64,000 nt of DNA from Fidelibacterota bacterium UBA6931 (GCA_002448795.1 DKAH01000017.1:54270-118269); one strand, 5' to 3'; positions 282 through 42,846 are shown, numbered from the stretch's first letter. The notes: a model not told the origin generated them from the sequence alone. Program-made: numbers and translations.

Positions 282-506
282 ATGTCTGAAGTGGTCTCAA
301 GAACAGGTGTTTCGAAAGAATCCGGTTATCTGTACTACCTCGGAAAGGACGGCAATGTGTGGCGTTCTAAGATGGCACGTGCAGGAAAAGGTGGTGGCAA
401 TGCGGAAAAAGTCGCCGATGCCGGTGTATCGCGGGAGTCAGGCTATCTATACTACATCGATAAGAATGGCGATGTTTCCAGATCTCCCATGGCGAGAGGT
501 CGTTAA
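282..506 (+). CDS. Small basic protein made of two copies of a 25-aa GVS(K/R)ESGYLYY..K(D/N)G.V.RS.MAR unit; unknown family
   Basis: AGGAG at 271-275 lies 6 nt before the ATG. The repeats (aa 9-33 and 48-72) are 18/25 identical while their codons differ at many synonymous sites. A strong terminator follows directly. Confidence 0.6.
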   Translation: MSEVVSRTGVSKESGYLYYLGKDGNVWRSKMARAGKGGGNAEKVADAGVSRESGYLYYIDKNGDVSRSPMARGR

Positions 507-528
507 TAGCTGATTCTATCTGTCGACT

Positions 529-560
529 AAAAAACCCTCGGTCTCGGCCGGGGGTTTTTT
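529..560 (+). terminator. Rho-independent terminator after the mini-gene
   Basis: The 7-bp GC-rich stem CCCTCGG (535-541) / CCGGGGG (548-554) has a 6-nt loop. It is flanked by A6 (529-534) and T6 (555-560). Confidence 0.8.
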
Positions 561-629
561 GTATTGGGGTGAATCAAATTGCGCCGCTTAAATTAATCGG
601 AGAATATCTTGGTCACCTAGTGTGAGAGA

Positions 630-1262
630 TTGATGAAAATCATCTTAAGAATCCTGATCATTATTTCACTTTCTTACGGGCAAGTTGACTACAGTTCTCA
701 GGTCCAGCCCATATTCAATCAGGATTGTACCAGCTGTCACGGGGGTAGTGGAGGTCTAACTCTTAACTCTTATGAGGAGCTTATGAAGGGAGGGAATAGT
801 GGAGCAGTCATTGTGGCTGGGAACGCTACCAGCAGTCTTCTGGTGCAACGCCTCGATGGGTCTGTTACACCGAAGATGCCTCAGGGAGGCTCACTTCCAG
901 ATTCGACCATCGATCTCATCAAGCAGTGGATCAATGAGGGAGCCATAGAGGCTGTGTCTATCACCGAAGAAGAACTACTGCCTTTGCTGTTTGAGGTTGA
1001 TGGGAATTTTCCTAATCCATTCAACCCCCTTACCAGAATTGTGATCAGTTCCAGGACCAAAGTCGAAGGGAGGGCGATGATTACCACAGCATCGGGAACA
1101 GCTGTTTTCGACTTCGGCACGGTTCAGATGCACCCCGGAACGAATAGCCTCGTCTGGAATGGCGAAGACAATACCGGCCGGCGACTTGCATCCGGACCTT
1201 ATCTCTTTATCTTTAAGAACTCTGACCTCATCCTTTCGCACAGGATGATACTCTTGAAATAG
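630..1262 (+). CDS. Secreted c-type cytochrome domain protein (Planctomycete-cytochrome-c/PSCyt1-like) with a Por/T9SS-type C-terminal sorting domain
   Basis: Signal peptide; VQPIFNQDCTSCHGG..GGLTLNSYEELMKGGNSG..MPQGG..WINEGA with CXXCH at 726-740. The C-terminus has FPNPFNPLTRI...LASGPYLF...ILLK. An ATG at 633 is the likelier start. Confidence 0.8.
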   Translation: MMKIILRILIIISLSYGQVDYSSQVQPIFNQDCTSCHGGSGGLTLNSYEELMKGGNSGAVIVAGNATSSLLVQRLDGSVTPKMPQGGSLPDSTIDLIKQWINEGAIEAVSITEEELLPLLFEVDGNFPNPFNPLTRIVISSRTKVEGRAMITTASGTAVFDFGTVQMHPGTNSLVWNGEDNTGRRLASGPYLFIFKNSDLILSHRMILLK

Positions 1263-1292
1263 GTTTAGGATTTCCTTAACGCTAGTCTACAT

Positions 1293-1709
1293 ATGAAAAC
1301 CGAGGTTCGGTTCTTTTCCGCTCTGGTCAGTCTAATAATTATGTTTGGATGTATTGATATGGGAAGTGAGCCGAAAGAGGTCCCTCCTGATGGCTCTTCG
1401 GTTTTTGCGGATGACATTCAGCCCATTTTTGATATCAGTTGTGCCCTTTCGGGGTGTCATGTCTCGAGTGCCTTGAGACCGCCTGACTTGAGGGATGGGC
1501 AAAGCTATTTAGAGATTGTCGATGTTGAGTCGTCAGGTTTTGCGCCGCTTAAGCTCGTCAAACCAACGAAGCCTGAAGAATCGGTTATCTACTTGAAAAT
1601 TTTAGGCGATCAATCTACCGGTTCACGAATGCCTCCTGGCGGGACACTAAGTGATGCGAGCATTCTTGCCATACGCACGTGGATAGAGGCAGGGGCAAAG
1701 AACAATTGA
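1293..1709 (+). CDS. Lipoprotein with a PSCyt1-like domain carrying a variant CX4CH motif
   Basis: Lipobox MFGC (Cys20). IQPIFDISCALSGCHV (1440-1460) ... MPPGGTLS...IRTWIEAGA parallels the preceding gene. Confidence 0.7.
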   Translation: MKTEVRFFSALVSLIIMFGCIDMGSEPKEVPPDGSSVFADDIQPIFDISCALSGCHVSSALRPPDLRDGQSYLEIVDVESSGFAPLKLVKPTKPEESVIYLKILGDQSTGSRMPPGGTLSDASILAIRTWIEAGAKNN

Positions 1710-2815
1710 CGACGAACCGAAAACTGTTTTATTTAATCTTCGCAACCACGATTTCGTTCGAAATTTTGATAGCTATACCCCGGTTTGCCATCAAGGAAGG
1801 GTCGTGTAACACGTGCCATGTCAATCCCACCGGCGGTGCCCTCAGGAACGATTATGCCAATCTTGTTATATCCCCCGATGAGATTGCCATGCCTAAGACC
1901 GCCTCACTTGTTCAACTCAGCGATCCCGGGCAGCTGACTGATCATCTCCGAATAGGCGCCGACCTTAGAGCCCAGTTTATTTCAGACAGTGAAGAAGCGT
2001 CGTTTTTTCCCATGCAGGCAGATTTTTACGCCCATTATGATGTTGCTGGTTTTGCTGGAATCTATGTCGAATCTGAAGCTTTGCTTGGCACCACAGAATA
2101 CTGGTCGAATGTTTTTTTGCCGTTCTTGAACAGTTTTGTGAAAGTGGGGAAATTGCGTCCCTATTATGGACTGGGATTGGACGACCACACCTCATTTATT
2201 CGTGGAGGCAATATTAAGAGGACTAAGGGCCTGGTGAAGGAAGGACTTCCGTTCTCACCGATGCGCCCGCCGATAAACGGAGCCGAAATCGGATTCTTTG
2301 GTATGAACTACAGTGTGACGGGAAGCATCTCAAACGGTTTTCTATCCGGAGAATCTGCTGAGGCGGCTTTTCTCGGGCCACCGGGCAACAGAACTGTGGT
2401 TTTAAGAGGAGAACGGTCGATCTCTAGGGGCGAGATAGACGGATTTGTCGGGGCATCTTACCTGTCCGAAGGAGAGACGTTACTGCGGGGTATTTTCGGA
2501 GGCGTTGCCAGAGGCCCTTTACTGTGGATGGGTGAAGTGGATTTAATGACCGGTTGGAGCGGCAATGTAACAGGGATGGCATCTTACAGCGAATTTGCTT
2601 GGATTGTGAGGCAAGGCGTTCACCTGCTGGCAAAATATGATTTCATTGATGAAGACATCGAAGTGCTGGAAAATGCGCTTTCAAGATTCTCACTTGGTGT
2701 TGAACTTTATCCCTTCAGTTTTTTGGAGTTCAAGCTTCAAATAAGAAAGACTACGGTGGCTGGCGGGGGAACTTCTCCGGCCGAATTTCTCTTTCAAACT
2801 CATGCATGGTTCTAA
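1679..2815 (+). CDS. Candidate fused monohaem cytochrome c / outer-membrane beta-barrel (Cyc2-like architecture)
   Basis: Hydrophobic N-terminus, then CNTCHVNPTGG (CXXCH 1805-1819). About 320 aa of alternating amphipathic strand-like sequence follows, ending in the aromatic ...FQTHAWF. A TTG at 1706 overlaps the upstream stop (TTGA) and is a plausible true start. Confidence 0.6.
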   Translation: MDRGRGKEQLTTNRKLFYLIFATTISFEILIAIPRFAIKEGSCNTCHVNPTGGALRNDYANLVISPDEIAMPKTASLVQLSDPGQLTDHLRIGADLRAQFISDSEEASFFPMQADFYAHYDVAGFAGIYVESEALLGTTEYWSNVFLPFLNSFVKVGKLRPYYGLGLDDHTSFIRGGNIKRTKGLVKEGLPFSPMRPPINGAEIGFFGMNYSVTGSISNGFLSGESAEAAFLGPPGNRTVVLRGERSISRGEIDGFVGASYLSEGETLLRGIFGGVARGPLLWMGEVDLMTGWSGNVTGMASYSEFAWIVRQGVHLLAKYDFIDEDIEVLENALSRFSLGVELYPFSFLEFKLQIRKTTVAGGGTSPAEFLFQTHAWF

Positions 2816-2827
2816 GGAGGCAGACGT

Positions 2828-3190
2828 ATGAAAAAGTTTCTTATTGTTATGGTCGCAGTGACTGCCGTTCAATCAATTCGAGCGCAGAATGTGAAAAACC
2901 TTAAAGTTCTCTCCTTCAAAACAAAGAAGGAGACCATGGATTATATGAAGAAGACCATCGCGCCGTCTCTAGGGGTGAAATGTTCCTACTGCCACAATGT
3001 TCGCGATTTCCCATCAGATGGAAATAAATACAAAGAAATCACGAGAGAGATGATACTTATGACTGAGTGGATCAACAAGAATACGATCAAGTCGCTAAAG
3101 TATGAACCTGTTACCTGCTGGACGTGTCATCAGGGGAACATCTATCCACCGCGTTACAAGGGCGACAAGGGTGAAGGGGACAAAGATTGA
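2828..3190 (+). CDS. Small secreted dihaem c-type cytochrome (reaction-centre cytochrome c subunit-like, PF02276-type)
   Basis: Signal peptide; CSYCHN..DF.SD (2981-2995) and VTCWTCHQG (3116-3130). GGAGG lies upstream of the ATG. Confidence 0.75.
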   Translation: MKKFLIVMVAVTAVQSIRAQNVKNLKVLSFKTKKETMDYMKKTIAPSLGVKCSYCHNVRDFPSDGNKYKEITREMILMTEWINKNTIKSLKYEPVTCWTCHQGNIYPPRYKGDKGEGDKD

Positions 3191-4575
3191 GTATGGAGTC
3201 TATGTTTCCTGAAAAAGCGATACTGTATGCAGAGGAGAACAGCGGTCGTTTCCTTCAGGAGCTGAAGGAACTGGTTGCGATCCCTAGCGTGTCCAGTGAC
3301 TCGAACCATCTTGGCGATATGAAAGTTTGCGCCGATTTTGTGGAGGGTGCCATTTCAAGCATCGGATTTGATCGAGTGCAAATGGTGGAAACGAAAAAAC
3401 ATCCCATCGTTTACGGTGAGTGGCTCGGCGCCCCAGGCGCCACAACCGTCCTACTTTACGGCCATTACGATGTCCAGCCCGTTGATCCACTTGAGCTCTG
3501 GGAGACACCGCCTTTTGAAGCTTCAGAGCGGGACGGCCGTCTTTACGGTCGAGGTACAGTAGACGACAAGGGGCAGTTTTACCTTCATCTTAAGGCGATG
3601 GAGTCGTGGATGCGGTCGGCTGGTAGTCTCCCGGTAAACATGAAAGTGATCATTGAAGGTGAGGAAGAGGTCGGTAGCGAAAGCCTCGAACCGTTTCTTG
3701 ATGAAAATCGAGAAATGCTAGCGGCGGACGTGGCGGTCATTTCCGACACAAGCATGATCAAGAAGGGGTGGCCGTCCATCACCTATGGTCTCAGAGGGAT
3801 CGCTTATTTCCAGATCGGTCTGAAAGGGCCTTCTCAGGATCTTCACTCCGGTATTTTTGGTGGTGCGGTGAAAAATCCCATTCACGCCCTGATAGAAATC
3901 ATTGGCCAACTTAAGGATAAGAACGGCCGCATTGCTATTCCCGGAGTCTATGATGATGTTGTTGAACTTACATCTGAAGAACGCAGGGTTATGGCCGAGC
4001 TCCCTTTTGAAGAGGAGTTATTTCTCGATGAGGTGGGCGCTCCTAAGTTAAGTTGGGAAGATGGTTACACTCCCCTGGAGAGTTTATGGTGCCGCCCTGC
4101 CTTGGATGTAAACGGGATTTGGGGAGGGTTTTCTGGAGAGGGTTCCAAGACAGTGATCCCCTCAGAAGCCCACGCCAAGGTGAGTATTCGGCTGGTCCCG
4201 AATCAAGAGCCGGACATCGTCGGAAATCTACTAGAGACATATGTTCAGGAGATCGTTCCGCCTGAAGTGGAGGTTACGATACAGAGAATGCACGGCGGCC
4301 GCCCTTTTCTTGGAGATCTTTCTAACCCTGCCTTTTCCGCGGCGGGGAGAGCTCTGGAAAAAGGATTTGGCGCAAAGGCGGTCTATATTCGGGAAGGAGG
4401 CTCAATCCCATTCGTTCGGAATATGACAGAAACACTTGACTTGCCTTGTCTACTGCTCGGATTTGGCCTTCCCGGAGAAAACGCTCATGCCCCGAATGAA
4501 TGGATCGACCTTGAAAACTACGCCCTCGGGACACAGAGCGCTATTCATCTTTACCACGAATTGAGTTTGATGTAA
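3187..4575 (+). CDS. M20 family metallopeptidase (dipeptidase/deacylase-like)
   Basis: YGHYDVQP, GRGTVDDKGQ and EGEEEVGS motifs. TTG at 3187 or ATG at 3193. Confidence 0.85.
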   Translation: MSMESMFPEKAILYAEENSGRFLQELKELVAIPSVSSDSNHLGDMKVCADFVEGAISSIGFDRVQMVETKKHPIVYGEWLGAPGATTVLLYGHYDVQPVDPLELWETPPFEASERDGRLYGRGTVDDKGQFYLHLKAMESWMRSAGSLPVNMKVIIEGEEEVGSESLEPFLDENREMLAADVAVISDTSMIKKGWPSITYGLRGIAYFQIGLKGPSQDLHSGIFGGAVKNPIHALIEIIGQLKDKNGRIAIPGVYDDVVELTSEERRVMAELPFEEELFLDEVGAPKLSWEDGYTPLESLWCRPALDVNGIWGGFSGEGSKTVIPSEAHAKVSIRLVPNQEPDIVGNLLETYVQEIVPPEVEVTIQRMHGGRPFLGDLSNPAFSAAGRALEKGFGAKAVYIREGGSIPFVRNMTETLDLPCLLLGFGLPGENAHAPNEWIDLENYALGTQSAIHLYHELSLM

Positions 4576-4672
4576 GAGAGGTCTGAAAATCTTCAGCGGT
4601 GTTTTCCGTTTTCATTTAATCTTTTTTCTCGGCTCTATTCTCTGGCCTGAATTCGATGTCCGATCCCAACCG

Positions 4673-5881
4673 GTGGTAAGTACAATTACCATCGAAGGGA
4701 ATCACATCACTAAAGAATACATTATTCGAAGAGAAATTCAGCACCAATTGGATGTTCCCTTGGATTCGACCATGGTCAAAGCGGATCGGGATCGAATAGA
4801 TAATCTGTCAATCTTCACCAGTGTAAAGTGGGAAGCTGAATTACTGGATGACGGGTCCGTGGAGCTGGTTTTTGTTGTTATAGAAACCTGGCGGATTTGG
4901 CCAGGCGCAGCTCCTATGTATTGGGAAGATAAAGGTTGGTCCTTCTTCGGCGCGGTGCGTGTGCTCAACTTCAGAGGTCGAAACCAAGCATTCGCCATGG
5001 GTGGCGCGGTTGGGGCATTGGATATGTTTGGATTCCAGTTTTCCGATCCATGGTTCGCAGGTGATCACATCTCATTTTCGGGCGATATAGGTCGGGTGAT
5101 TTTCCAGCACCCTTTCCTGCCTTACGTCCAGATCACAGATTCATTCGAAGCGATTCTTGGCAGATGGTTTGGCTACAAATGGAAAGTGCGGGTAGGGTTC
5201 GAACTTGAACGTAAACAGTTCGAGGGTGAAACCGATACGCTCACATACAGTTATGTGGCACCCCAGGGGTCTGTTGCCTACGATACAAGAGATATCTACC
5301 GAGATCCGTCAGAGGGTATCTCTGTTCTTCAGCAGTTCTATGTCATGTTCCACAGTTCGGATTCAAATCGGAACCGATTGGTCTGGACACAAACTGTTGG
5401 TAGCTACTGGTCACCAGTTAAAGGGAAGAATAAACTGACTCTTGGATTGGGACTGATGTCCATTGCCACTTTCGGCGCCCTTGATGAGGTCTGGATCAAT
5501 TATTTTGGTGGTAGCTACAGTATCAGAGGTTGGTCAGTTCCATCTCGGGAGGATTTTCTAGACCCTGGCCACTCATTCCGTTTCGGAAACCAGGAATTGG
5601 TGTTTTCCGCGGAGGCACGAAAGACGATTGTATCTTCCTCCTCAGTTTCAGCTCTTTCATTAAATGCTGAGTACGGCCTGGCAGTCGTCGGATTTATCGA
5701 TGTGGGGGTTACTTCCTTAGAGCTTTCAGATCTTTTTGTGAGTGATCCGCTAATAGGAATGGGTTTCGGAATCCGCGTCCCCGTATTTGGGAGTTTTCTT
5801 CGCATAGATTATGGTTGGGCCTATTATGGCGGGAAAGCGTACGGAACTTCATTGAATATCGGTTCTGGACAGAAGTTTTAA
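4673..5881 (+). CDS. Omp85/BamA-TamA family outer-membrane protein with one POTRA-like domain
   Basis: ITIEGNHITKEYIIRREI is POTRA-like, and the beta-barrel tail ends ...GSGQKF. The in-frame upstream region (4571-4672) encodes a signal-peptide-like stretch without a canonical start (see findings). Confidence 0.75.
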   Translation: MVSTITIEGNHITKEYIIRREIQHQLDVPLDSTMVKADRDRIDNLSIFTSVKWEAELLDDGSVELVFVVIETWRIWPGAAPMYWEDKGWSFFGAVRVLNFRGRNQAFAMGGAVGALDMFGFQFSDPWFAGDHISFSGDIGRVIFQHPFLPYVQITDSFEAILGRWFGYKWKVRVGFELERKQFEGETDTLTYSYVAPQGSVAYDTRDIYRDPSEGISVLQQFYVMFHSSDSNRNRLVWTQTVGSYWSPVKGKNKLTLGLGLMSIATFGALDEVWINYFGGSYSIRGWSVPSREDFLDPGHSFRFGNQELVFSAEARKTIVSSSSVSALSLNAEYGLAVVGFIDVGVTSLELSDLFVSDPLIGMGFGIRVPVFGSFLRIDYGWAYYGGKAYGTSLNIGSGQKF

Positions 5882-5918
5882 CTTTCTTCACAGAATTCGC
5901 AGGTTAGCTGTCTCTGGG

Positions 5919-6563
5919 CTACCTCCGTCTAAAGACCAATACTCTTTCAAATCTCTTTTCGTTTCCACGGCGGAGGCGAGCAATATTATCTCGGTGTTTG
6001 AAGATGACAAAGAGAGGTACCACAAGTGTAAAGATCACAAACGATTGAGGTGCAGGTGTCAGTCCGGCCAATGGAAGCAGCAAGACTGAAATAGGTAAGG
6101 TTACGGCGGCAGTAATCGAGCTGAGTGAAACATAGCCCCAGATTCCGAAAGTTACACTGAACATTAAGAAGGATATGAATACCGCTGCCGGATAAAGTGC
6201 AGTCATCATGCCGGCGAGGGTAGCAATCCCTTTCCCACCACGGAATCGGGCGAAGATGGTGTAACTGTGGCCCAAGACAGCCGCACCGCCAGCAGCGATT
6301 TTAATAATTGTGATGTCTGTACCATCGCAGTTGCCTATGATGAGAGTCGGAACCCAAGCCGTCGCCAGCCAACCTTTCATGACGTCCACTACACCGACAA
6401 AGATACCCGCTTTTAAACCGATCACACGGATAACATTGGACATGCCGGCATTTCCACTTCCGTGTTCACGGATGTCGACTTTTCCGACTTTTTTCGCAAC
6501 AATAATGCTCATTGGCAGGGATCCAACTACATAGCTAATGATTATAATGATAAAAACTATCAT
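5919..6563 (-). CDS. plsY: Glycerol-3-phosphate acyltransferase PlsY
   Basis: GSLPMS...REHGSGNAGMSNV motif; polytopic membrane protein of about 210 aa. Confidence 0.9.
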   Translation of the reverse strand: MIVFIIIIISYVVGSLPMSIIVAKKVGKVDIREHGSGNAGMSNVIRVIGLKAGIFVGVVDVMKGWLATAWVPTLIIGNCDGTDITIIKIAAGGAAVLGHSYTIFARFRGGKGIATLAGMMTALYPAAVFISFLMFSVTFGIWGYVSLSSITAAVTLPISVLLLPLAGLTPAPQSFVIFTLVVPLFVIFKHRDNIARLRRGNEKRFERVLVFRRR

Positions 6564-6691
6564 GCAATAGTACGTAAAATATATTGTTTGTTATCTACTT
6601 TTTTTGATATTTTACGAGGAGTTTAAATACTAAATCGGTTCGGAAGATCTGTCTCACCCTCCTTAACCCCACGTTTCTTTCGGACTGATTC

Positions 6692-7300
6692 TTATTTTGG
6701 AAGGCTGGTAATTTCGTTTTCTTTAGGTGCCAGCATTCCCCCTGAAATAATCATCTTTAATCCTTCCTCAACAGTGAGTTTCGAATCGATGGCGTCTCCC
6801 CGTGGAATCATAACCATAACTCCAGAAGTTGGGTTTGGTGTGGTTGGAACGAACAGGTGGTAATAAGCTGTGCCATTTGCATCTTTGGATTCCCCGGTGA
6901 CAAAGGCAATGGTCCAGATCCCGACACGGGGGTAGCTGATGAGCACTGCTTTCTGAAAGGCCCGGTTTGAAGCGCCGGTGATTGATTGAGTAATCTGCTT
7001 TGCTGTGCCATAAATGGTGTTTGCAAGTGGGATACGACGAAGAAGAGACTCGCCGATGATGACCAGTTTTCTTCCGAGAAAGTTCGTTACGAAGATTCCG
7101 AGGAGATACATAAAAAGGAGTCCGATAATGACGCCTAGCCCAGGAATGTGGAAGGGGAGTAAAGGGTCCAGAATGGGTGCGGCGAAACTATCGAAAAAGT
7201 TGAAAAGGACTTTCAGTATCCAAATGGTAGCAAGGATAGGAGCAACAGTGACCAGTCCAGCCACTATCTTTCCACGGAGGTGTTTCAGTACGTGTGCCAT
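6692..7300 (-). CDS. DUF502 family membrane protein
   Basis: The N-terminal LRGKIVAGLVTVAPILATIWIL..FFD pattern and size are typical of DUF502. Confidence 0.65.
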   Translation of the reverse strand: MAHVLKHLRGKIVAGLVTVAPILATIWILKVLFNFFDSFAAPILDPLLPFHIPGLGVIIGLLFMYLLGIFVTNFLGRKLVIIGESLLRRIPLANTIYGTAKQITQSITGASNRAFQKAVLISYPRVGIWTIAFVTGESKDANGTAYYHLFVPTTPNPTSGVMVMIPRGDAIDSKLTVEEGLKMIISGGMLAPKENEITSLPK

Positions 7301-7337
7301 TGTCGTTTGTTTAAGTTAATCAGTTGATCCGAATCGA

Positions 7338-7850
7338 TCAATCGGAATGGGAGAGAGGGGACCTCTCATGTTTGAGGAGCCACTTTTTCATCGGCAATCC
7401 ACCGCCGAAGCCACCAAGGGTGCCGTCGTGAGCGATAACACGGTGGCACGGTATAACAATTGGAACGGGGTTTCTACCGTTGGCACTTCCCACTGCCCGG
7501 ACCGCCTTGGCATTGTTCATCCGCTCCGCAATCTCTTTGTAAGAAGCTGTCTTTCCGAAAGGAATCTCCGCTACCTTCTTGAGCGCTTTTTCTTGAAACT
7601 GTGTCGTTCTAAGATCAATGGGAAAAGTGAAATTCTCACGAACACCGTCAAAGTATTCCCGAAGCTCGTTCAGTTCATCTTGAAGGGCGTTGCTGTTTTC
7701 GACCATCTCTTCTTTGGGGAAGATATCCAAAATCCACTGGAAAAAAGTGCTATCGTTTTCAGACTGCAGACTGATCTTACATACGCCCAGGGATGTCTTG
7801 GCAATGAGAAGTTTTCCGATGGGGGTATCTAGAGAGGCGTAAGTGATCAC
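7338..7850 (-). CDS. ogt: Methylated-DNA--protein-cysteine methyltransferase
   Basis: IPCHRVI active-site motif; about 170 aa. Confidence 0.85.
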
Positions 7851-9994
7851 GCCCGGAGGTCTTCCGGCCGTATGGGGAGCTTTCGAATACGCTTACCGGT
7901 CGCGTCGAAGATGGCGTTTGCCACTGAAGGGGCGACGGGGGGGAGTCCCGGCTCACCAGCACCGCTGGGTGGTTCATCACTCGCGACAATATGAATCTCC
8001 ATCTCTGGTGATTCATCGATTCGTAGCAATTCAAAATCGTGGAAATTTGACTGTTCCACGGCACCTTTCTTAATAGTAATCTCACCCTTGAGTGTGGAGG
8101 TGAGGCCGTAGACGATGCCGCTTTCCATCTGCATTCTGATGCCGTCCGGGTGGACTGGAAGGCCGCAGTCGATTGCGCCCACAATTCTATCCACGGTGAA
8201 AGAACCGTCACTCTTTACTGTAACTTCAGCGACGTGGGCGGCCCAGGAGCCGAATGATTCATGAACAGCGATTCCTCGTCCCCGGCCTTTTCCAAGTTTT
8301 GTACCCCAGCCCGATTTCTCGGCGGCAACATTCAGGACACCGAGATGGCGAGGTGAATTCTTGAGTAATTTAACTCGAAAGTGGTAGGGGTCTTCGTCAG
8401 CTAGATGGGCCAGCTCATCCACAAAGCCTTCGTTGGCAAAGCCGTTCTGGGAGTTGTATACCGCGCGCCACCACCCCACAGGCACCTTAGTGTTCGTCAT
8501 TATATAGTCTATATGAAGATTAGGAATTTCATAAGGTAGGTTCCTAGCACCACTGACGGCGCTTTTGTCTAACTCTCCTTTTGTGAATTTTTGCGGGCTG
8601 CGTTGAGCTGAAATAGACGGTGCGATGATTCGATGAGACCAGCTTTTCGCTTGATTCTTTTTTGTCAAGGCTGCGGAAAGTTTGTGAATACTCGTAGGAC
8701 GAAAAAAATCATGCGCCATATCTTCTTCTCGCGTCCACAGCATTTTCACAGGCTTGCCTATTTTCTGAGAAATCTCCAATGCATCAGTAACGTAATCAGC
8801 AAATAACCTCCTCCCAAAACCGCCTCCAAGGAGGGTGACATGTACTTTCACTTGCTCTAGAGGGATACCGAGATGCTCAGCTGCTTTAGTCTGGACACGC
8901 TGAGGAACCTGCGTAGGAACCCAAATTTCGCATTTGCCATTACCGACATGCGCCACACAGTTCATCGGCTCCATCGTTGCATGATGGGTAAAAGGCACTT
9001 CATACTGCACCTCAAAAACAGAGGCCGCTTTCTTGTGAGCTGTTGTAACGTCGCCCTCTTTGCGGGCTATAACAGCTTTGCCACTGCCGCCCTTCTTTTC
9101 CATGAATGATTTGATCCGGTTACTATCCCAATTTGCGAAATCACCGTGATCCCATTCAATGTCCAATGCACGTTGTCCCTGGATTACTGACCAGGTGTTA
9201 TTTCCTACGATAGCGACACCTTCTTCTATGGCAAAAATATCGGTGACTCCAGGGATACCCTTAGCTGAATTAGAATTGAAAGATTTTGCCTTTCCTCCAA
9301 ATGTGGGACAGTGGATAACTGTGGCGTAGAGCATGTCCGGAATTCGAATATCGATTCCGAACTGTGCTTTGCCATTCGCCCTGGAGGGGGTATCCTTTCC
9401 AGGCATAGATTTTCCTATAAAATTGAAGTCTTCAGGATCTTTTAGTTTTGGATTGGTCGAAAGTGAATAACTTGAAGCCATTTCAGCTAATTCTCCAAAA
9501 GTAAACTGACGCTTAGTCGGGAGATGAATAATTTTACCTTTTGTAGCTATACATTCCTCAATAGTAACCCCCCATTTTTTTGCTCCCGCTTTTATCAATA
9601 CTTCTTTAGCCGCGGCGCCAGTTTTTCTTAAAATAGTAAATGATTCTCTGATCGAACCACTGCCTCCGGTACCTTGATTTCCATATTTTTGTTCATTAGC
9701 ATCTGCTTGAAGTACGGTTATTTGGCTCCAATCAGCTTCGAGCTCGTCTCCTAGTATCATTGGAAGAGAGGTTCTAACATGCTGGCCCATCTCAGACTTT
9801 GCTACTGTAATGACAACGCTATTGTCAGGGTGAATGGCGAGAAACGCGTTTGGTTCGAACGGCTGGGAAGGTGCAAGCCCTGCTGCCACGAGGCGTTCTT
9901 TCGCCGGTAGGAATACGCCAATCATCAACCCGACTCCGGCAGTTGAAGAAACCTTCAGAAAATCACGGCGGCTAACGGAAGATTCAGGCATCAT
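7847..9994 (-). CDS. Molybdopterin-binding subunit of an aldehyde oxidase/xanthine dehydrogenase-family oxidoreductase (IorB-like)
   Basis: Tat signal [10 protein letters not shown]. The length and conserved blocks are typical of the IorB/aldehyde dehydrogenase large subunit. It is coupled to the 2Fe-2S subunit gene upstream. Confidence 0.8.
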
Positions 9995-10449
9995 ATTTCC
10001 TTTGCTGCTCTATGGATCGCCTTCCGAATCCGCTGGTAGGTGCCACAGCGGCAAAGGTTCATCTTCATGGCGGTGTTAATATCCTCGTCCGAGGGGTCGG
10101 AATTTTTTTCCAACAGTGCCGCTGCTGTCATAATCTGACCAGACTGACAGTAGCCGCACTGGGGGACCTCTTCGGCAATCCACGCTTGCTGAAGAGGGTG
10201 AGAAAGATCAGTGGAGAGACCTTCGATGGTAGTAATCTCCGAGCCGTCGACGTATTCCACTGACGTCATGCATGCCCGTGTCGGTTCGCCATCAAGGTGA
10301 ATTGTACAGGTACCGCAAAGCCCACGGCCGCATCCAAACTTGGTTCCGGTGAGTCCCAACTCATCCCTGAGCACCCAGAGCAATGGCATATCTTCAGCAA
10401 CATTGACGTTCTGCTTCTTGCCATTGATTGTTATTGAGTACCGCGCCAT
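9991..10449 (-). CDS. (2Fe-2S)-binding small subunit (IorA-like)
   Basis: [10 protein letters not shown] and CGYCQSG...CRCGTY cluster motifs. Confidence 0.9.
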
Positions 10450-10509
10450 GAAAGTTCTTGAATCTAAGTCTCCACTGCATCTTTATCAAGGTATCGGTAA
10501 GACTAATTG

Positions 10510-11397
10510 CTAAATCCTCTCCCGACCCGGGGCCTGTCTAGAGTGAATGAGATAAACACTAAAAAGCACCAACATCCCGCCGCCGAACAGTTCAACACCG
10601 TAAGTTTCTCCGAGAAAAATCCACCCAACTGTCGCCGCAATAACAGGCGGCAAGAGACCAAATGTCGAAATTTGGTTTACTGAAAGGTGATTGTAAAGCC
10701 AGAAGTAGATCGTCCATGTAATCACCGTACCGAAAACCGCAAGGTAAGCGAGAGCCAGTATGCTCGTGCTGTTCCAAACAGTGGCAGACGGTTCTTCCAG
10801 CATATAAGCCAGGGGTATAAGCACGATCGCGGCGATGGACTGAGCTATCACATTAACATGGAGAGGATCGACCTCCTTCTGGTGTTTCTTAAGATAAATA
10901 TTGGGTCCAGAAGCCAGCATCACCGCGGCGAGGATTGCCAAGACTCCAACAAAATGAGTCTCGCCTGCTCCGCTCTGGAACGCTACAATCAGCGATACAC
11001 CGGAAAGCCCCAGAAGGCCTCCAGTGAATCTTCGGAGTGTGAGCGGTTCGGACGGGAGCTTAAAGTGGGCTGTAATGGAGACAAAGATGGGAAGTGTTGC
11101 CCATATGATAGCCGCGAGGCTTGAGTATATATACTGTGCGCCCCAATAAGTGAGGGAGTAGGCTGACACAAAACTGAGCAGAGAAAAACTTAGGTAAACC
11201 TTCAGCGCGGTGGATGAATAGCTGATTCTTGGCTTCTTTAAGAGGAGCAGTGGCCACAGGATAATGGCAGAAAAGGTAAATCTTAGACCCAGCCCGAATA
11301 TGGGTGGAATGTATTCGAGGCTGATCTTGAGCGCCAGCCAGGTTGAGCCCCAGATAAAGTTTAGGATAATGTAAAGAATAAAGACTTTCGGTGTCAC
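10510..11397 (-). CDS. EamA/DMT family transporter
   Basis: About 10 TM segments in a duplicated EamA pattern; GTG start. Confidence 0.75.
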   Translation of the reverse strand: MTPKVFILYIILNFIWGSTWLALKISLEYIPPIFGLGLRFTFSAIILWPLLLLKKPRISYSSTALKVYLSFSLLSFVSAYSLTYWGAQYIYSSLAAIIWATLPIFVSITAHFKLPSEPLTLRRFTGGLLGLSGVSLIVAFQSGAGETHFVGVLAILAAVMLASGPNIYLKKHQKEVDPLHVNVIAQSIAAIVLIPLAYMLEEPSATVWNSTSILALAYLAVFGTVITWTIYFWLYNHLSVNQISTFGLLPPVIAATVGWIFLGETYGVELFGGGMLVLFSVYLIHSRQAPGRERI

Positions 11398-14340: not shown

Positions 14341-16662
14341 CTATTGTCTTGCGTGAAGAGAGAGGACAAGATTTCTGCCTGGCCCGTTCATGCCTGAACC
14401 GTGCTCGCGGTAATTGCGGTCGAGCATATTCTGAAGAGAAAGTTGCAGAATAACACTTTTGCCGATTGTAACGCCCCCTCGGACATTGACGGTAAACCAT
14501 CCGGGAGTCCCACCGGCAGGTATCCGGGGATCGTCGAGATCATCGGAAGACAATCTTTCCTGTCGTGAAGCGAAGCGAACAAAACCATCAACAAAGAGCC
14601 CCCCTCTGTTCCACCGTATGCCCGCGAGTCCGAATAGAGGAGGGATACCGCCCACCGGCTCGTTCAGTGTAATGTTCTCACCGGTGGTAGAAGTAAGATT
14701 AGCACGGAATGTCAGAGGGTCCGTCAGTGAATAGTCTAAGGCGAATTCCGCGCCACGGATTACCGCCTCACCGAAGTTCCGTTTCGTCTTAACCTTGAAT
14801 ACATCGCCATTGATCACCACCGTATCGGTGCCGGCGTATATGGCGTCATAACTGGTGAGGATATCGGTGATGTCGGACCGGTAGAGTGTTGCGCTTAGTC
14901 TGAGGTTCTGTGAAGAAACCTTAAGTCCAAGATCTGTGTTGAGCAGTTGCTCTGGTTTCAATCGACTGTTGGGAACTTCATAGATATCTCCCTTGGACTC
15001 TCCCAGCTTCGCCATATCGCTCAGGTTCGGTGCCCGGAAGGCCTGAGCAACATTGAGGTTGAGAGAAAGGAACCGAGACAGCTTGAAGACGGCGCCGACC
15101 GCTCCTGTTCCGGCGGTAAATGTTTGGGAAAATGGGGAAACTGTGCCTTCAATGTCCGTTAAATTAAATTCAGTTGAGTAGCTGCTGTATCGAAATCCGA
15201 TTTTTGTCAGGAGTCGATTATTTATTCTTAACTCATCCTGCAAGTAGATTCCGATGCTCTGGTATGATGCACCGTCGGGATAACGTCCTCGGAGGTCGCG
15301 ATCTTCATCACCCGACTGAGCATCGACAAAATGTCGTTTGCTTGAGACACGGTCCCGATACACTTCTCCGCCAGCGACCAGAAGGTGACGGCCCAGTTCC
15401 TTAACACCGCTCAAGCTCACCCCCTGCGAGTTTACATGGTCCAGTTCCTTCTTAAAGGAAGACGTCTCTTCCTTCTGACTTTCGCGTCCTTCCCGCTGAA
15501 TGTGGAGCGAGATATTGGTTCTCAGAGCATCAAACAGTTTTAACCCTCCGGTCTTCTCATAAATAGCATAAGTGAGAGCCCGTTTCTGGGGATGGTAAAC
15601 CCAGCGGTGATAGCCGCTGTAGTGATATTTATCGTATCGGGGAACGTTTGTCTGACTGCTGGACTGATGTGCGACCGTGACCTTCTGTTCCTTGCTAAGC
15701 TGAGAAGTCAACTTTACATCAATATCGATGGCGTCAAACCCGCTAGGCGACTGCACCAGATCATGCCCGGAGATCTCCGGATCGTCCCCGTTGCTTCCGC
15801 GCCGAAGGTGGCCGAATTGCTTCAGGCTAAAGGCACTGCTGAGGAGCAGTCGGTTATTCCCGGTGGTTGCTTCGCCTCTCACCGTCTTTTCCTGATCGGC
15901 CGTGGCGTAACGAAGAAACGATTTCAAATCGAAAGTCTTGTCTTGATTAATTCGCCTCGGTTTTTTAGTGATCAGATTGATGGTACCGCCAAGGGCGTCA
16001 CTGCCGTAAAGCACGGACGTAGGGCCGCGGACGACCTCCATCCGTTCGATCATTTGATTATCTACCGTTGTTAGGTATTGATGATTTCCCAATCGGTATA
16101 CGGAATTGTTCAGCCGAATCCCATCCACCAGAAGTAAGATCTGGTTGGAACTCAGGCCGCGAATGATGGCGGAACCTCCACCGTGATTTGTTTTTTGAAT
16201 AAAAACCCCCGGTTCCTCATGGAGAGCTTCCGCTGATGTTTTTGAGTTTCGCTCCCTGATTTCTCGAAAAGAGACGAGGCTAACCGACTCGGGGACATCC
16301 ACCACATCACGCTCCGCACGGCTTGCAGTCACCACCACATCTTCGAGGTCTAGAACATCATACTGAAGAATCACGGGAGGGAGAAAGACATTTTTCTCTG
16401 AAAGTGTGACTTCCTGAACTAAGTGAAAGAAACCGATATGCTGGAACAAAAGAGTGTAACTGCCCGGTAAGACATTTTCGAAATTGAAAGCTCCATCGCT
16501 ATCGGTGTAGAGGGTAAAGAATCCCGGTGTTAGAGTAATGTGGACTTCAGAGATTGGTTCGCCCTGAGGGTCCGCCACGGAACCGGCGATCGTATAATTC
16601 TGACCCATAGTAGCCAATGGAAAAAAGTTGAGCAGAATGGGTAGACACCGCATTGTAAGCAT
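14341..16662 (-). CDS. TonB-dependent receptor with an N-terminal carboxypeptidase-regulatory-like domain
   Basis: CarboxypepD_reg (GSVADPQGEPISEVHITL), a plug (IIRGLSSNQILLLVDGIRLNN...VVRGPTSVLYGSDALGGTINL) and a barrel. Confidence 0.85.
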   Translation of the reverse strand: MLTMRCLPILLNFFPLATMGQNYTIAGSVADPQGEPISEVHITLTPGFFTLYTDSDGAFNFENVLPGSYTLLFQHIGFFHLVQEVTLSEKNVFLPPVILQYDVLDLEDVVVTASRAERDVVDVPESVSLVSFREIRERNSKTSAEALHEEPGVFIQKTNHGGGSAIIRGLSSNQILLLVDGIRLNNSVYRLGNHQYLTTVDNQMIERMEVVRGPTSVLYGSDALGGTINLITKKPRRINQDKTFDLKSFLRYATADQEKTVRGEATTGNNRLLLSSAFSLKQFGHLRRGSNGDDPEISGHDLVQSPSGFDAIDIDVKLTSQLSKEQKVTVAHQSSSQTNVPRYDKYHYSGYHRWVYHPQKRALTYAIYEKTGGLKLFDALRTNISLHIQREGRESQKEETSSFKKELDHVNSQGVSLSGVKELGRHLLVAGGEVYRDRVSSKRHFVDAQSGDEDRDLRGRYPDGASYQSIGIYLQDELRINNRLLTKIGFRYSSYSTEFNLTDIEGTVSPFSQTFTAGTGAVGAVFKLSRFLSLNLNVAQAFRAPNLSDMAKLGESKGDIYEVPNSRLKPEQLLNTDLGLKVSSQNLRLSATLYRSDITDILTSYDAIYAGTDTVVINGDVFKVKTKRNFGEAVIRGAEFALDYSLTDPLTFRANLTSTTGENITLNEPVGGIPPLFGLAGIRWNRGGLFVDGFVRFASRQERLSSDDLDDPRIPAGGTPGWFTVNVRGGVTIGKSVILQLSLQNMLDRNYREHGSGMNGPGRNLVLSLHARQ

Positions 16663-18948: not shown

Positions 18949-19150
18949 TCTTTCTCCTTGTTGAAATACTTTGTCTAAAGGACCTTCGACTGAGCGTCAG
19001 GTCCTGGTTTCTGATTTGTTCTCCCAACTTTATAGCTTGAATTGTCATACCCACAAGTCCATTCATTTGTCAGGCAGATTGGAGGTTGGGTTGGATTGTT
19101 TTCAATCAAATGATGAATCCAATTCTTCTCGTAATTTATATGGTGATGGT

Positions 19151-20908
19151 ATGGTGAAAAAAGATTCATTCCTTTCTGCGGTTTTACTCCTGCTATGGTG
19201 CCAGAGTCTTTTCGCTCAGGTCAAATATACTCAAACTGTAGTCTCCTATAACGTCTTGAACTATCGCGGTACCAGCGTCGCCGACAATGATAGAGAGGAT
19301 GACTTCAGACTGGTGATCTCTGAGACTGATCCCGATCTTATCGTGGCGCAGGAATTGGAAAACACCACAGGCTACACCCACTTTCTCAACGATGTGCTCA
19401 ACCACGATGAGGCGGGCCGCTACGAAGGGGCCTCCTTTTCTGATCAGTCCAATACCGATATCGATATCGCTCTCTATTTCAGGAGTGGAGTTTATAGGGT
19501 AATCTCCACCGGCACGGTGAACACAACCTCAAGCTGGGGACACAGGGACGCAGTGGAGTTTGTGGTACGGCACCTTCCATCCGATCAAGAGCTGCGGCTT
19601 TACGGCGTCCACCTGAAAGCGGGATCTAGTGCCAGCAATGCCGCCGACCGGCAGTCGGAGGCGTCCAAACTGAGAGCCTATCTTAACGATCTCGAAGCCG
19701 ACAGCCACTTTCTCGTCCTGGGCGATTTCAATGTGTATGATGGAGACGAGGCTGGCTTTCAGAGGCTGGTGGAATCGCAAGATGACAACGACGGCCGGCT
19801 GTTTGATCCTATTAATCAGATCGGTGCTTGGCACAACAACTCTTCGTTTGCTTCCATTCATACGCAGGCGACTCGTGCCACTTTCGGTGGAATGGACGAT
19901 CGTTTCGACTTCATTCTTGCCTCCGAAGCGGTTCTGAATGCATCGTCAGTGAACTTTGTTGAGGATTCATACACCGCCTTTGGAAATGATGGGACGCGGT
20001 GTTGTAATGAGGCGATTAACAGCGGCACCAACGGGGTTGTTTCGGCTAATGTGGCCGATGCCCTCCACGACGCATCAGACCATCTCCCGGTGGTGATGAA
20101 AATTGAATTCATCGGGGCCGAAGCGAGTGACCACACCATCGTCATCAACGAAATTATGAAGGACCCCTCGGCGGTAAGCGACGCCAGCGGAGAATGGTTC
20201 GAGCTCTATAACGCCGGGGAGACCGCTGTCGACCTGTGCGGCTGGACACTGAAGGACAACGACAATGATGAATTTATCATCACGTGTGATGACAGTTTTG
20301 TAATTGCAGCAGGCGAATACGTGGTACTGGCGCCCAACGGTGATTCTGCGTCCAACGGTGGTCTCTCTGTCAATTATACCTACATCTACGGCAGTTTCAA
20401 ACTGGCAAACGCCAACGATGAAATTATTCTAATTGATGCCAGCGGCGGAGAGGCGGACAGGGTGGAATACGATACCTCTTTTCCTGATCCTACCGGCGCG
20501 TCCATGGCCCTCACCGATCCATCTGCAGATAACAGTGATGGTGCCAACTGGAATGTTTCCACGCTGGTTTATGGCGCCGGCGACAAAGGAACACCGGGTC
20601 AGAATAACAGCGGTATCACTGTCACTACCTCAAAACCGCTGCCTAAGGAATTCGAGCTACACCAGAATTATCCCAACCCGTTTAATGCCATCACCACAGT
20701 CCCGTTCACCATGGCCGAACGCGGTGAGGTCCACGTCTCCATTTTTAACCTTCATGGAAAGGAGATGGCGGTGCTGATGAGTGGATCCGCGAGGGCCGGA
20801 GAACAAAGGGTCAAGTGGGACGCCTCTCAGTTTTCTAGCGGTCTCTATATCTGTCGGCTCGAAGTGACGGGTAAGAGTATTACGCGGAAGCTCCTCTTGC
20901 TGAAATAG
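19151..20908 (+). CDS. Secreted endonuclease/exonuclease/phosphatase (EEP) family hydrolase with a lamin-tail domain and a Por/T9SS-type C-terminal domain
   Basis: An ATG at 19151 gives the signal peptide MVKKDSFLSAVLLLLWCQSLFAQ. EEP blocks are VVSYNVLN, AQELEN, LGDFN, DRFDFIL and SDHLPV. The LTD is VINEIM.DP....GEWFELYN and the tail is YPNPFNAITTVPF...SGLYICRL...LLLLK. Confidence 0.8.
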   Translation: MVKKDSFLSAVLLLLWCQSLFAQVKYTQTVVSYNVLNYRGTSVADNDREDDFRLVISETDPDLIVAQELENTTGYTHFLNDVLNHDEAGRYEGASFSDQSNTDIDIALYFRSGVYRVISTGTVNTTSSWGHRDAVEFVVRHLPSDQELRLYGVHLKAGSSASNAADRQSEASKLRAYLNDLEADSHFLVLGDFNVYDGDEAGFQRLVESQDDNDGRLFDPINQIGAWHNNSSFASIHTQATRATFGGMDDRFDFILASEAVLNASSVNFVEDSYTAFGNDGTRCCNEAINSGTNGVVSANVADALHDASDHLPVVMKIEFIGAEASDHTIVINEIMKDPSAVSDASGEWFELYNAGETAVDLCGWTLKDNDNDEFIITCDDSFVIAAGEYVVLAPNGDSASNGGLSVNYTYIYGSFKLANANDEIILIDASGGEADRVEYDTSFPDPTGASMALTDPSADNSDGANWNVSTLVYGAGDKGTPGQNNSGITVTTSKPLPKEFELHQNYPNPFNAITTVPFTMAERGEVHVSIFNLHGKEMAVLMSGSARAGEQRVKWDASQFSSGLYICRLEVTGKSITRKLLLLK

Positions 20909-42442: not shown

Positions 42443-42846
42443 TGTCGTCAGTTTCAAAAGAGTGTGATGTATGCGGAAATTATTATGGTGCAGAAGCCGA
42501 TGGGATGTCAGTTCTTTGTCCACAGTGCGGAGAGGAAGAACTTTCAGTTTTTTCAGGTGATTGGCCTTTCCAGAGATGTCCCTGCTGTGATTGCCATCAA
42601 TTTTACAGGAGGAAAGATTTTAATCAGATCATCGGATGCTTCATCATCCTTGTGGGAGCAATCTTTGTTCCTTTCACTTATGGACTTAGCCTGATCGTTC
42701 TTTCGCTACTTGACTATCTACTCTATCGGAAGGTTCCGGAACTGTTCGTTTGTTATAAATGCGGGGCGGAGTTCCGCGGTTTTGGGCCACTTCCAAAGGA
42801 TGTTGCAGTTTTTGATCATCATATTGGCGAATTGTACGAAAAGTGA
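42442..42846 (+). CDS. Hypothetical zinc-ribbon membrane protein
   Basis: CDVC..CPQC, then CPCCDC, two TM segments, then CYKCG. Confidence 0.55.
   Translation: MSSVSKECDVCGNYYGAEADGMSVLCPQCGEEELSVFSGDWPFQRCPCCDCHQFYRRKDFNQIIGCFIILVGAIFVPFTYGLSLIVLSLLDYLLYRKVPELFVCYKCGAEFRGFGPLPKDVAVFDHHIGELYEK

Follow-up and report, generated by a model that had tools for sequence, protein, structure and literature searches.

We describe here a small cytochrome-porin locus at positions 630-3190 (+ strand) of a 64,000-nucleotide stretch of DNA from Fidelibacterota bacterium UBA6931 (GCA_002448795.1 DKAH01000017.1:54270-118269), the whole of which we call the window. The locus probably encodes a trans-outer-membrane electron conduit, a compact porin-cytochrome module of Marinimicrobia that is Cyc2-like, divergent and native to the Fibrobacterota, Chlorobiota and Bacteroidota (FCB) group. 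Its core would be gene c, a predicted 16-strand porin with a single c-type haem on an N-terminal extension of about 50 residues, which is homologous to the haem module of Cyc2. Gene c is encoded together with, and would be translationally coupled to, b, a putative monohaem lipoprotein, and d, a putative soluble periplasmic dihaem protein. As an original prediction made from the sequence had proposed, four co-directional open reading frames (ORFs) for secreted proteins with haem motifs lie in this interval:

633 to 1262 (+; alternative start TTG 630): gene a, secreted monohaem PSCyt1-type cytochrome, from its signal peptide, CTSCH motif, Met-Pro pair and match to PF07635
1293 to 1709 (+): gene b, small PSCyt1-type lipoprotein cytochrome of 138 aa, from its lipobox, CALSGCH motif and orthologs that match PF07635
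1706 to 2815 (+; alternative start GTG 1679): gene c, fused monohaem cytochrome and 16-strand porin, Cyc2-like, from AlphaFold2 (AF2), Foldseek and hhalign
2828 to 3190 (+): gene d, small secreted dihaem cytochrome of 120 aa, from PF02276, NF033196 and PufC chains in the PDB

The genes are closely packed, with 30 nt between a and b (1263-1292) and 12 nt between c and d (2816-2827). Genes b and c overlap, the stop of b at 1707-1709 following the TTG start of c at 1706 to give a gap of -4 nt. The same -4 overlap between b and c is the rule among related loci (e.g., L002, L037, L040, L051, and L080 of the set described below), and because it recurs there we favor TTG 1706 over GTG 1679 as the start of c.

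Gene c encodes a predicted porin with a putative haem-binding extension

The product of gene c is 369 aa long from TTG 1706 and 378 aa long from GTG 1679. It begins with a putative signal peptide, in which a basic n-region and the hydrophobic stretch TTNRKLFYLIFATTISFEILIA precede AIPRFA and which AF2 models as a single helix over residues 2-22. The segment AIPRFAIKEGS-CNTCH follows, with the haem motif at 1805-1819 (residues 34-38), and the remainder, from about 1946 to 2809, is a predicted barrel with HAWF at the C-terminal end. A closed barrel had been predicted for this protein, and the AF2 model (pLDDT 77, pTM 0.76) agrees, placing 16 strands in residues 81-368, where pLDDT is mostly 80-90. 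A long loop between strands 5 and 6 holds the invariant motif DDHTSFIRGGN (2180-2212), in the position of the constriction loop L3 of general porins. Foldseek comparison of the model with the PDB returned 16-strand general porins, namely OmpU, OprP (2o4v), PorB, Omp32, and OprO (4rjw), at E values of 1e-9 to 1e-7.

Gene c, which has no match in Pfam, NCBIfam, or the PDB sequences, is a member of a large family: when 1.84 billion representatives were scanned in full with HMMER, 2,364 clusters (50% identity) were recovered at E ≤ 1e-3, 1,224 at ≤ 1e-10, and 283 at ≤ 1e-30. The original prediction held that homologs of c should keep the CXXCH motif, and all of the full-length homologs do (77/77), across several phyla and down to 26% identity. 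An alignment of 40 sequences at 30-80% identity has invariant Cys34, Cys37, His38, Gly43, Arg47, Gly84, Arg88, Met103, Gln104, Asp160, His161, and His366. When distant phyla are included (237 sequences), Met103, the Asp-Asp-His161 triplet, and His366 are still kept at about 95% or above. The protein itself is 100% identical to one on DDZX01000028.1 (GCA_002346965.1) and to proteins on Tara Oceans scaffolds.

Relationship of gene c to Cyc2

Cyc2 proteins have been defined by a signal peptide, a single CXXCH, the motif AXPXFAR[Q/K][T/Y] upstream of it, PXL downstream of it, and a length of at least 365 aa (PMC8406198). Their porin part, remarked to be poorly conserved, has been modeled with 16 strands on OprO and OprP, the same two structural matches that we found for c (PMC8406198). 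Gene c likewise has a signal peptide, a single CXXCH near the mature N terminus, a 16-strand predicted porin, and a length of at least 365 aa. The upstream motif reads AIPRFAIKE in the window, retaining A, P, F, and A and lacking the conserved Arg and Thr/Tyr. PXL, expected four residues past CXXCH, is replaced in the family by H-V-N-P-T-G-G-x-L-R-N-D-Y-G, with Pro at +3 and Leu at +8; the Cyc2-type counterpart downstream of the motif is H-x-x-F-P-E-L-T-P-F-G-R. Strict membership of gene c in Cyc2 is thus ruled out by the published signature, and because of its motif filter, c would drop out of the published Cyc2 tree.

The two groups nevertheless share a frame around the haem motif. The consensus of family c is AxPRFAxxxGxSCxxCHVNPTGGGLRNDYG, the window's protein reads AIPRFAIKEG-SCNTCHVNPTGGALRNDY, and Cyc2-type proteins read, for example, AVPAFARQTGMACMACHVSFPELTPFGR, so that Ala, Pro, Phe, Ala, and the Gly at +5 are common to both. 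A Phe-to-Cys spacing of 8 together with Gly +5 is found in the family consensus, in most homologs, and in Cyc2-type proteins such as AVPAFARQTGMACMACH; the window's copy (F-A-I-K-E-G-S-C) is one residue shorter, with a spacing of 7 that appears as a gap in the alignment. Some distant members of the family have FA-x-R-T-G.

We compared the two groups at the level of profiles. Cyc2-type references were collected by a tblastn search of PLSDB with a motif peptide. The ORFs found were confirmed to encode haem-porins over their full length, with a cytochrome gene after each of them, and came from a Ralstonia megaplasmid, Caballeronia, Methylocystis, Ideonella, Polymorphobacter, and an A. ferrooxidans plasmid; the set was then enlarged to 124. 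These references are motif-bearing Cyc2-type proteins, as distinct from the biochemically tested Cyc2 proteins themselves. With six Cyc2-type sequences, hhalign aligned the N-terminal module at 88% probability and E 3e-6, and with 124 Cyc2-type against 237 family sequences it gave 95.8% and E 7.6e-9 over 86 N-terminal columns. Reciprocal hmmsearch matched 124/124 Cyc2-type and 236/237 family sequences, always in the N-terminal ~40 residues. As a control, we searched the Cyc2-type hidden Markov model (HMM) against 4,034 ORFs of the fetched loci, a set that includes PSCyt1-like and PufC-like secreted cytochromes; scores for family c reached 23.7 bits, with a median of 13.4, and the best unrelated ORF scored 7.3. 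A tblastn search of plasmids for Cyc2 homologs with distant members of the family (those of L079 and L068) gave no match, even at E 10. On these profile comparisons, gene c is a homolog of Cyc2 at the superfamily level, with the same architecture.

The likeness to Cyc2 (A. ferrooxidans Cyc2, Mariprofundus Cyc2PV-1, Leptospirillum Cyt572; FeGenie clusters 1-3) covers a CXXCH a few residues past the cleavage site, the A-x-P-x-F-A ... G-x-x-C-x-x-C-H frame, a porin that matches OprP/OprO, an adjoining gene for a periplasmic c-type cytochrome, and the lack of a Pfam model for either group. Apart from the P-T-G-G-x-L-R-N-D-Y-G segment in place of PXL, gene c differs in that its barrel is ~70-100 residues shorter than those of the Cyc2-type proteins compared (438-517 aa) and that its family has invariant residues of its own (Met103, DDH161TSFIRGGN, His366). 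Its partners are PSCyt1- and PufC-type proteins instead of c4/Cyc1, and its host belongs to a marine heterotroph lineage, unlike the known iron oxidizers. The suggestion of a Cyc2/Cyc1-like logic is therefore borne out for the homologous haem module and for the cytochrome neighbors seen across phyla, but gene d is analogous, not homologous, to Cyc1.

Conservation of the locus

To collect related loci, we scanned GTDB with a sequence pattern, using a single genome for each species; this gave 80 loci (L-numbers), whose genes were compared by ORF-level phmmer. We distinguish Marinimicrobia-type loci, in which c is found at E < 1e-40, from 16 distant loci at 26-30% identity:

Marinimicrobia-type loci: PSCyt1 gene directly upstream of the barrel gene in 49 of 53; d-like gene directly downstream in 55 of 59
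Distant loci: PSCyt1 gene adjoining the barrel gene in 12 of 16, downstream of it in 8; d-like gene directly downstream in 1 of 15

Co-conservation of all four genes had been predicted, and this does not extend to gene a, which is confined to the window's clade and a few other lineages. Judged from these neighborhoods, the conserved unit is b-c-d, not a-b-c-d. The broader proposal of a compact surface-to-periplasm electron route accordingly keeps its core, a haem-barrel with cytochromes, with b-c-d as the unit and a as an accessory.

The distant loci come from metagenome-assembled genomes (MAGs) labeled Bacteroidota, Chitinophagaceae, Chlorobiaceae, Fibrobacteraceae, Ignavibacteriaceae, Myxococcales, and Gammaproteobacteria. 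Since the PSCyt1 gene is downstream of the barrel in 8 of the 12 loci that have it, the gene order has been rearranged there; canonical Cyc2-type loci likewise have the barrel first and the cytochrome second. In L068 (a Myxococcales-labeled MAG) and L079 (an Enterobacterales-labeled MAG), a gene for a c4-type dihaem protein is directly downstream of the barrel, as in cyc2-cyc1, and the c4-type partners in these two loci and in canonical Cyc2-type loci match PF00034/PF13442. By gene neighborhood, then, the barrel keeps a c-type cytochrome neighbor through changes of order and swaps of partner family.

L068 also has further haem proteins around its barrel. At 2271-10679 of this locus, the barrel is a 531-aa ORF as called, with a start that may be over-extended; a 5-haem protein is encoded upstream and an 8-haem protein beyond the c4-type dihaem gene. 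Its gene content suggests a more complete locus for extracellular electron transfer, organized around the family barrel.

The genome had been taken to be of FCB type, and the relatives of c are overwhelmingly labeled Candidatus Marinimicrobia/Neomarinimicrobiota, which corresponds to Fidelibacterota of the FCB group. Two Marinimicrobia-type loci carry other labels, L010 ('Gammaproteobacteria bacterium') and L047 ('Winogradskyella sp.'), with barrels 67% and 42% identical to that of the window; in L010 the M20 and Omp85 genes follow downstream as well. These contigs are probably mis-binned in their MAGs.

The partner cytochromes

Gene b had been described as a lipoprotein with a PSCyt1 domain and an unusual haem motif. 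The lipobox (MFGC, Cys20 at 1350-1352), the CX4CH motif CALSGCH (1440-1460), and a conserved Met113-Pro114 are all present, but the protein has no profile match of its own, in Pfam at E up to 1 or in NCBIfam; its PSCyt1 identity comes from similarity to a and to its orthologs. Orthologs in the same position match PF07635, and b aligns with them at 38% identity. We found 86 PSCyt1-like ORFs adjoining barrels: 64 have CXXCH, 14 have CX4CH (mostly CA[LTV]SGCH), and 5 have CX3CH (e.g., CGNNCH, CGGGCH). The CX4CH form occurs in L004-L009, L014, L015, L027, L053, L063, L064, and L077, spanning the entire window clade plus one Bacteroidota locus, and the CX3CH form occurs in L017-L019, L026, and L036. 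The CX4CH of gene b is, from this distribution, a recurrent conserved variant, not a lesion. That both forms are kept within clades and recur in different lineages suggests that they are functional, selected variants of the haem-attachment site. The series may be useful in its own right, as a natural set for studies of haem attachment.

The lipidated Cys of b and its orthologs is followed by residues of the pattern C-[STI]-D-[LMF]-G-[ST]-[NE]-P, with one acidic residue. In Bacteroidota, a lipoprotein export signal (LES) for surface lipoproteins consists of a polar residue at +2 and then at least two acidic residues beside the lipidated Cys (PMC5080379). Gene b and its orthologs lack this LES, a rule that is not defined for Marinimicrobia, and with a single acidic residue after the Cys we do not claim surface exposure of b by this route.

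The conservation of the CX4CH motif also bears on whether the locus is a chance juxtaposition or a product of mis-called ORFs, with c a plain porin carrying a fortuitous CXXCH and b a decaying pseudogene. The missing direct Pfam match and non-canonical motif of b, and the missing family annotation of c, would fit such an explanation, but the CXXCH of all 77 homologs, the clade-conserved and recurrent CA[LTV]SGCH, the synteny, and the 2,364 clusters effectively refute it, and we consider it extremely improbable. Across the 64 kb window, moreover, a scan of ORFs of at least 60 aa found seven with CXXCH or CX3-4CH, four of them genes a-d. The N termini of the other three (10012-10263, 42442-42846, and 62012-62254), read by eye, are without a signal peptide, so the cytochrome cluster is not a chance pattern. 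Genes a-d are the sole credible c-type cytochrome genes of the window.

Gene d has haem motifs CSYCH (2981-2995) and CWTCH (3116-3130) and, as a profile search suggested in advance was to show, matches PF02276 (61.2 bits; cutoff 22.4). It passes NCBIfam NF033196, c_type_nonphoto (82.5 bits; cutoff 70), and falls below the PufC equivalog NF040706 (67.5 vs a cutoff of 150). It aligns to the first two haem segments of PufC chains in the PDB (chain residues ~73-164, E 1e-17). Met40, Met75, and both CXXCH motifs are invariant among 26 homologs, and the two methionines are likely the sixth haem ligands. The AF2 model (pLDDT 63.7, pTM 0.30) is too poor for a fold search and has a helix ahead of each CXXCH. 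A homolog search gave 52 matches, all of 78-121 aa, of which the few with a source name are Marinimicrobia; no new genomic context for d emerged among these matches.

We rejected an assignment of gene d to Cyc1/cytochrome c4, as the class-I cytochrome c models PF00034/PF13442 give no match at E up to 1 and the protein is instead a PufC-type dihaem cytochrome. It resembles Cyc1 (the c4 protein of the cyc2-cyc1/rus operon) in being a small secreted dihaem protein encoded beside a haem-porin, presumably as the periplasmic acceptor, but is not a class-I c4 protein and matches PufC-type helix-CXXCH segments (PF02276, NF033196). PufC itself (e.g., 1prc chain C) shares the Met-helix-CXXCH pattern, and gene d passes the cutoff of the non-photosynthetic branch. 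PufC, however, has four haems to the two of d and more than 300 aa to its 120, and d, unlike PufC, occurs in a non-phototroph host that has no reaction-centre genes.

Gene a had been placed at 630-1262 and credited with a signal peptide, a PSCyt1 domain with CTSCH, and a Por-type tail. These features are present, with the haem motif at 726-740 and a conserved Met-Pro after it, but the start differs: ATG 633 is likelier than TTG 630, and the public gene call of 209 aa supports it. The expected match to PSCyt1 (PF07635) is found at 37.1 bits (cutoff 22). The last ~90 residues (~1002-1259; NFPNPFNP ... ILLK) resemble a type-A sorting domain of the type IX secretion system (T9SS). When tested for T9SS signals (TIGR04183/PF18962), this tail alone scores 13.2 bits against TIGR04183 over model positions 2-70 of 72, where the cutoff is 23. 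The tail also aligns with the sorting domains of two other ORFs in the window, at 31% identity and E 1e-16 with that of 27656-30325 and at 23% identity and E 6e-9 with that of 18971-20908, and these domains both pass TIGR04183 (37.8 and 40.9 bits). Because its tail is homologous to in-window domains that pass the model, we conclude that gene a probably carries a T9SS sorting domain and very probably encodes T9SS cargo; having gained this domain, it is probably exported to the cell surface.

The two ORFs that carry these reference domains are themselves large secreted proteins. ORF 18971-20908 (+) combines an endonuclease/exonuclease/phosphatase domain, a lamin-tail domain, and a Por_Secre_tail (T9SS type-A), and ORF 27656-30325 (-), of 889 aa, ends in an FlgD_ig-type C-terminal sorting domain (T9SS type-A). 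The genome therefore uses T9SS cargo signals.

A separate gene a with PSCyt1 domain and tail is confined to the window's clade (c at 65% identity or more), in L004-L008 and L063. L020, L042, and L052 have analogous genes, and L014 has a degenerate copy of gene a without the haem domain. From these alignments and this distribution, gene a is a duplicated PSCyt1 domain, a clade-specific and accessory paralog of b.

The transcription unit

Two further features bear on the extent of the transcription unit:

528 to 561 (+): hairpin with U-run, resembling an intrinsic terminator; RNA fold -21 kcal/mol, z = -5.1 vs shuffles
3193 to 4575 (+): M20 dipeptidase gene, 2 nt after d; NF006053 dipeptidase at 575 bits

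The hairpin at 528-561 ends an upstream 74-aa gene and therefore marks the 5' boundary of the cytochrome transcription unit. Downstream of d, no terminator-like site is found before 4595; the first is at 4595-4610, past the M20 dipeptidase gene. For this reason the dipeptidase gene is possibly co-transcribed with a-d. It is outside the conserved module: in other Marinimicrobia the slot after d holds a gene for a 240-aa lipoprotein, or nothing. A scan for promoter consensus sequences gave no more than the shuffled expectation, with the sigma-70 consensus used being unsuited to FCB bacteria.

Possible functions of the module

In the mechanism that we favor, the haem of c would be in or at the pore, and Met103 (strand 2), His161 (loop 3), and His366 (last strand) would be candidate sixth ligands or metal-binding residues. 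Electrons might pass between species that are outside the cell or diffuse into the pore and periplasmic d, perhaps also b, and then the respiratory chain; gene a may act at the cell surface. Inward flow is favored, in which a soluble donor would be oxidized (the precedent being Fe(II)), because of the Cyc2 analogy and because the partners look His/Met-ligated.

Several observations weigh against an electron conduit of this kind. The homology of c to Cyc2 is confined to ~90 N-terminal columns, which are partly signal peptide, and a profile comparison of the barrel of c with Cyc2-type barrels alone was not significant (P 0.025), so we claim homology for the N-terminal module alone. The strict signature is also incomplete, as FAR[Q/K][T/Y] lacks its Arg and Thr/Tyr and PXL has given way to P-T-G-G-x-L. 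AF2 confidence is below 50 for residues 26-75 of c, the haem extension, and the model does not fix the placement of the haem relative to the pore. Pfam scans of the window ORFs found no oxidase near the operon. The module also sits among housekeeping genes whose synteny extends across the phylum, with those for the 74-aa protein, Omp85, PlsY, DUF502, and Ogt conserved too. Adjacency within Marinimicrobia is weaker evidence of functional linkage, because unrelated neighbors are equally syntenic; judged by gene order, the rearranged pairing across phyla is a stronger argument for functional coupling. Lastly, by MAG and sample names, family c is found in Marinimicrobia from open-ocean samples and low-oxygen basins, and oxic sea water contains far too little Fe(II) for it to be an energy source. 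This occurrence and this scarcity argue against obligate iron lithotrophy and keep a trace-metal or general extracellular redox role in play.

Some of these observations would also suit a haem that stands outside any trans-membrane electron path. The haem of c might serve in a redox or gas sensor, a pore gate, or peroxidase-like protection, with b and d as ordinary carriers kept nearby by synteny. The extension is only ~50 residues long and poorly modeled, the invariant Asp-Asp-His at the constriction loop could bind a ligand or act as a gate, and the region as a whole is strongly syntenic. Against this, the barrel-cytochrome pairing survives rearrangement and replacement in Bacteroidota-, Chlorobiaceae-, Fibrobacteraceae-, Myxococcales-, and Enterobacterales-labeled MAGs, the 4-nt overlap of b and c implies co-translation, and the haem module has a homolog in a protein proven to transfer electrons. 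We therefore regard a sensor, gate, or protective function as improbable.

The occurrence of the module raises another alternative, in which the same architecture has a housekeeping, non-energetic role and does not perform lithotrophic Fe(II) oxidation. It might assist the acquisition or detoxification of iron or trace metals by redox chemistry, for example by reducing or oxidizing iron as it crosses the pore, or it might export electrons to Fe(III), organic complexes, or oxidants outside the cell. The module is almost universal among open-ocean and low-oxygen Marinimicrobia (Tara, Red Sea, Mediterranean, Saanich Inlet, and Black Sea, by MAG and sample names), it lies among housekeeping genes with two TonB-dependent receptors in the window, and its clade-specific, probably surface-exported paralog a suggests contact with something extracellular. 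Set against these points are the lack of adjacent iron-transport genes (Feo, Efe, Ftr, or binding proteins) in any inspected locus and the fact that the only characterized relatives, Cyc2 proteins, are electron-accepting Fe(II) oxidases (PMC8406198). We think this role unlikely, if worth keeping in mind.

An electron conduit thus remains our preferred reading. In a more specific form, which we put forward tentatively and with some doubt, the module would be a core trait of Marinimicrobia, a four-haem wire made of an outer PSCyt1 protein (lipid-anchored b or T9SS-anchored a), the haem of c within the porin, and periplasmic d, which might exchange electrons with the dissolved or colloidal iron of seawater or with other extracellular redox species, an activity not at present ascribed to this lineage.

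Relation to other systems and implications

The monohaem domain with Met-Pro that a carries, and b through its orthologs, is that of Planctomycetes-type PSCyt1-PSCyt2-PSD1 proteins (PSCyt1, PF07635). Here, unlike there, it is a stand-alone lipoprotein of ~130 aa or is joined to a probable T9SS sorting domain, and it tolerates CX3CH and CX4CH. The module also recalls MtrCAB, PioAB, MtoAB, and Pcc, in which an outer-membrane barrel with c-type cytochromes on either side takes electrons across the outer membrane. Those systems use large barrels of ~26 strands that sheathe a separate decahaem protein, whereas the predicted barrel here has 16 strands, its haem is fused to it, and its partners have one or two haems.

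Full-text literature searches turned up no relevant report on Cyc2, FeGenie, or outer-membrane cytochromes in Marinimicrobia, Marinisomatota, or Fidelibacter. FeGenie calls of Cyc2 exist in other uncultured phyla, e.g., Krumholzibacteria and Aminicenantes (PMC7914226), and the Cyc2 of Chlorobium has been treated as a horizontal acquisition from Proteobacteria (PMC9342728). On present comparisons, family c is a distinct branch with its own partners, mainly from Marinimicrobia and other FCB-group MAGs, and not a categorically new system.

Inference of microbial iron oxidation from genomes and metagenomes relies mainly on Cyc2 as a genetic marker. Because family c, a large and unannotated family that looks like a sister of Cyc2, shares the haem module and the 16-strand porin and fails the published motif filter, signature-based surveys may miss, or call inconsistently, a whole branch of fused cytochrome-porins. 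In Marinimicrobia (SAR406), a marine lineage abundant worldwide and one of the most numerous heterotroph groups of the dark and low-oxygen ocean, this branch seems to be a core trait, and it is also found in MAGs labeled Bacteroidota, Chlorobiaceae, Ignavibacteriaceae, Fibrobacteraceae, Myxococcales, and Gammaproteobacteria. Should it prove to conduct electrons, organisms now modeled as ordinary heterotrophs would have an extracellular redox capability. The system is also very small, with 369 + 138 + 120 residues and four haems, which would make it usable for work on electron transfer through a porin by a single fused haem.

Genomic surroundings

We ran Pfam scans on 40 further ORFs of the window and consulted precomputed annotations over ~1-12.8 kb. 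The neighbors are housekeeping genes, including TonB receptors, BamA, LpxACD, Dxr, RseP, and transporters. The original prediction noted no terminal oxidase or reductase in the window, and this largely holds, the one exception being a molybdopterin oxidoreductase pair on the opposite strand. This pair, at 7847-10449 (-), is of the aldehyde-oxidase/xanthine-dehydrogenase type; one subunit, of 715 aa, binds molybdopterin and has a twin-arginine-like N terminus (SRRDFLK), and the other, of 152 aa, is the 2Fe-2S subunit. It is the sole redox enzyme near the operon and is absent at the matching position in L002.

Upstream of the operon, at 282-506 (+), is the gene for the 74-aa protein, a basic protein with two repeats of ~37 aa (GVSKESGYLYYLGKDGNVWRS...) that is found in this position in many Marinimicrobia loci. 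It is 88% identical where the neighboring barrel is merely 33-38% identical. The protein has no Pfam or NCBIfam match, and its sole matches among PDB sequences are designed symmetric beta-propellers ('Cake', E 9e-7). From this similarity, it may be a two-blade unit that oligomerizes into a propeller.

Downstream of the operon in most Marinimicrobia loci is an Omp85-family gene, here at 4673-5881 (+), of ~400 aa, in which no POTRA domain is clearly recognizable; POTRA repeats are found in the true BamA, encoded at 43659-46037. It is conceivable that the Omp85-family protein inserts the haem-porin. The conserved 240-aa lipoprotein of many relatives, which has no haem motif and no Pfam match, is encoded between d and the Omp85 gene, e.g., at 7447-8175 in L002. 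The two TonB-dependent receptors, at 14341-16662 (-) and 23271-26051 (-), have N-terminal carboxypeptidase-regulatory-like domains and are typical of FCB nutrient-uptake loci.

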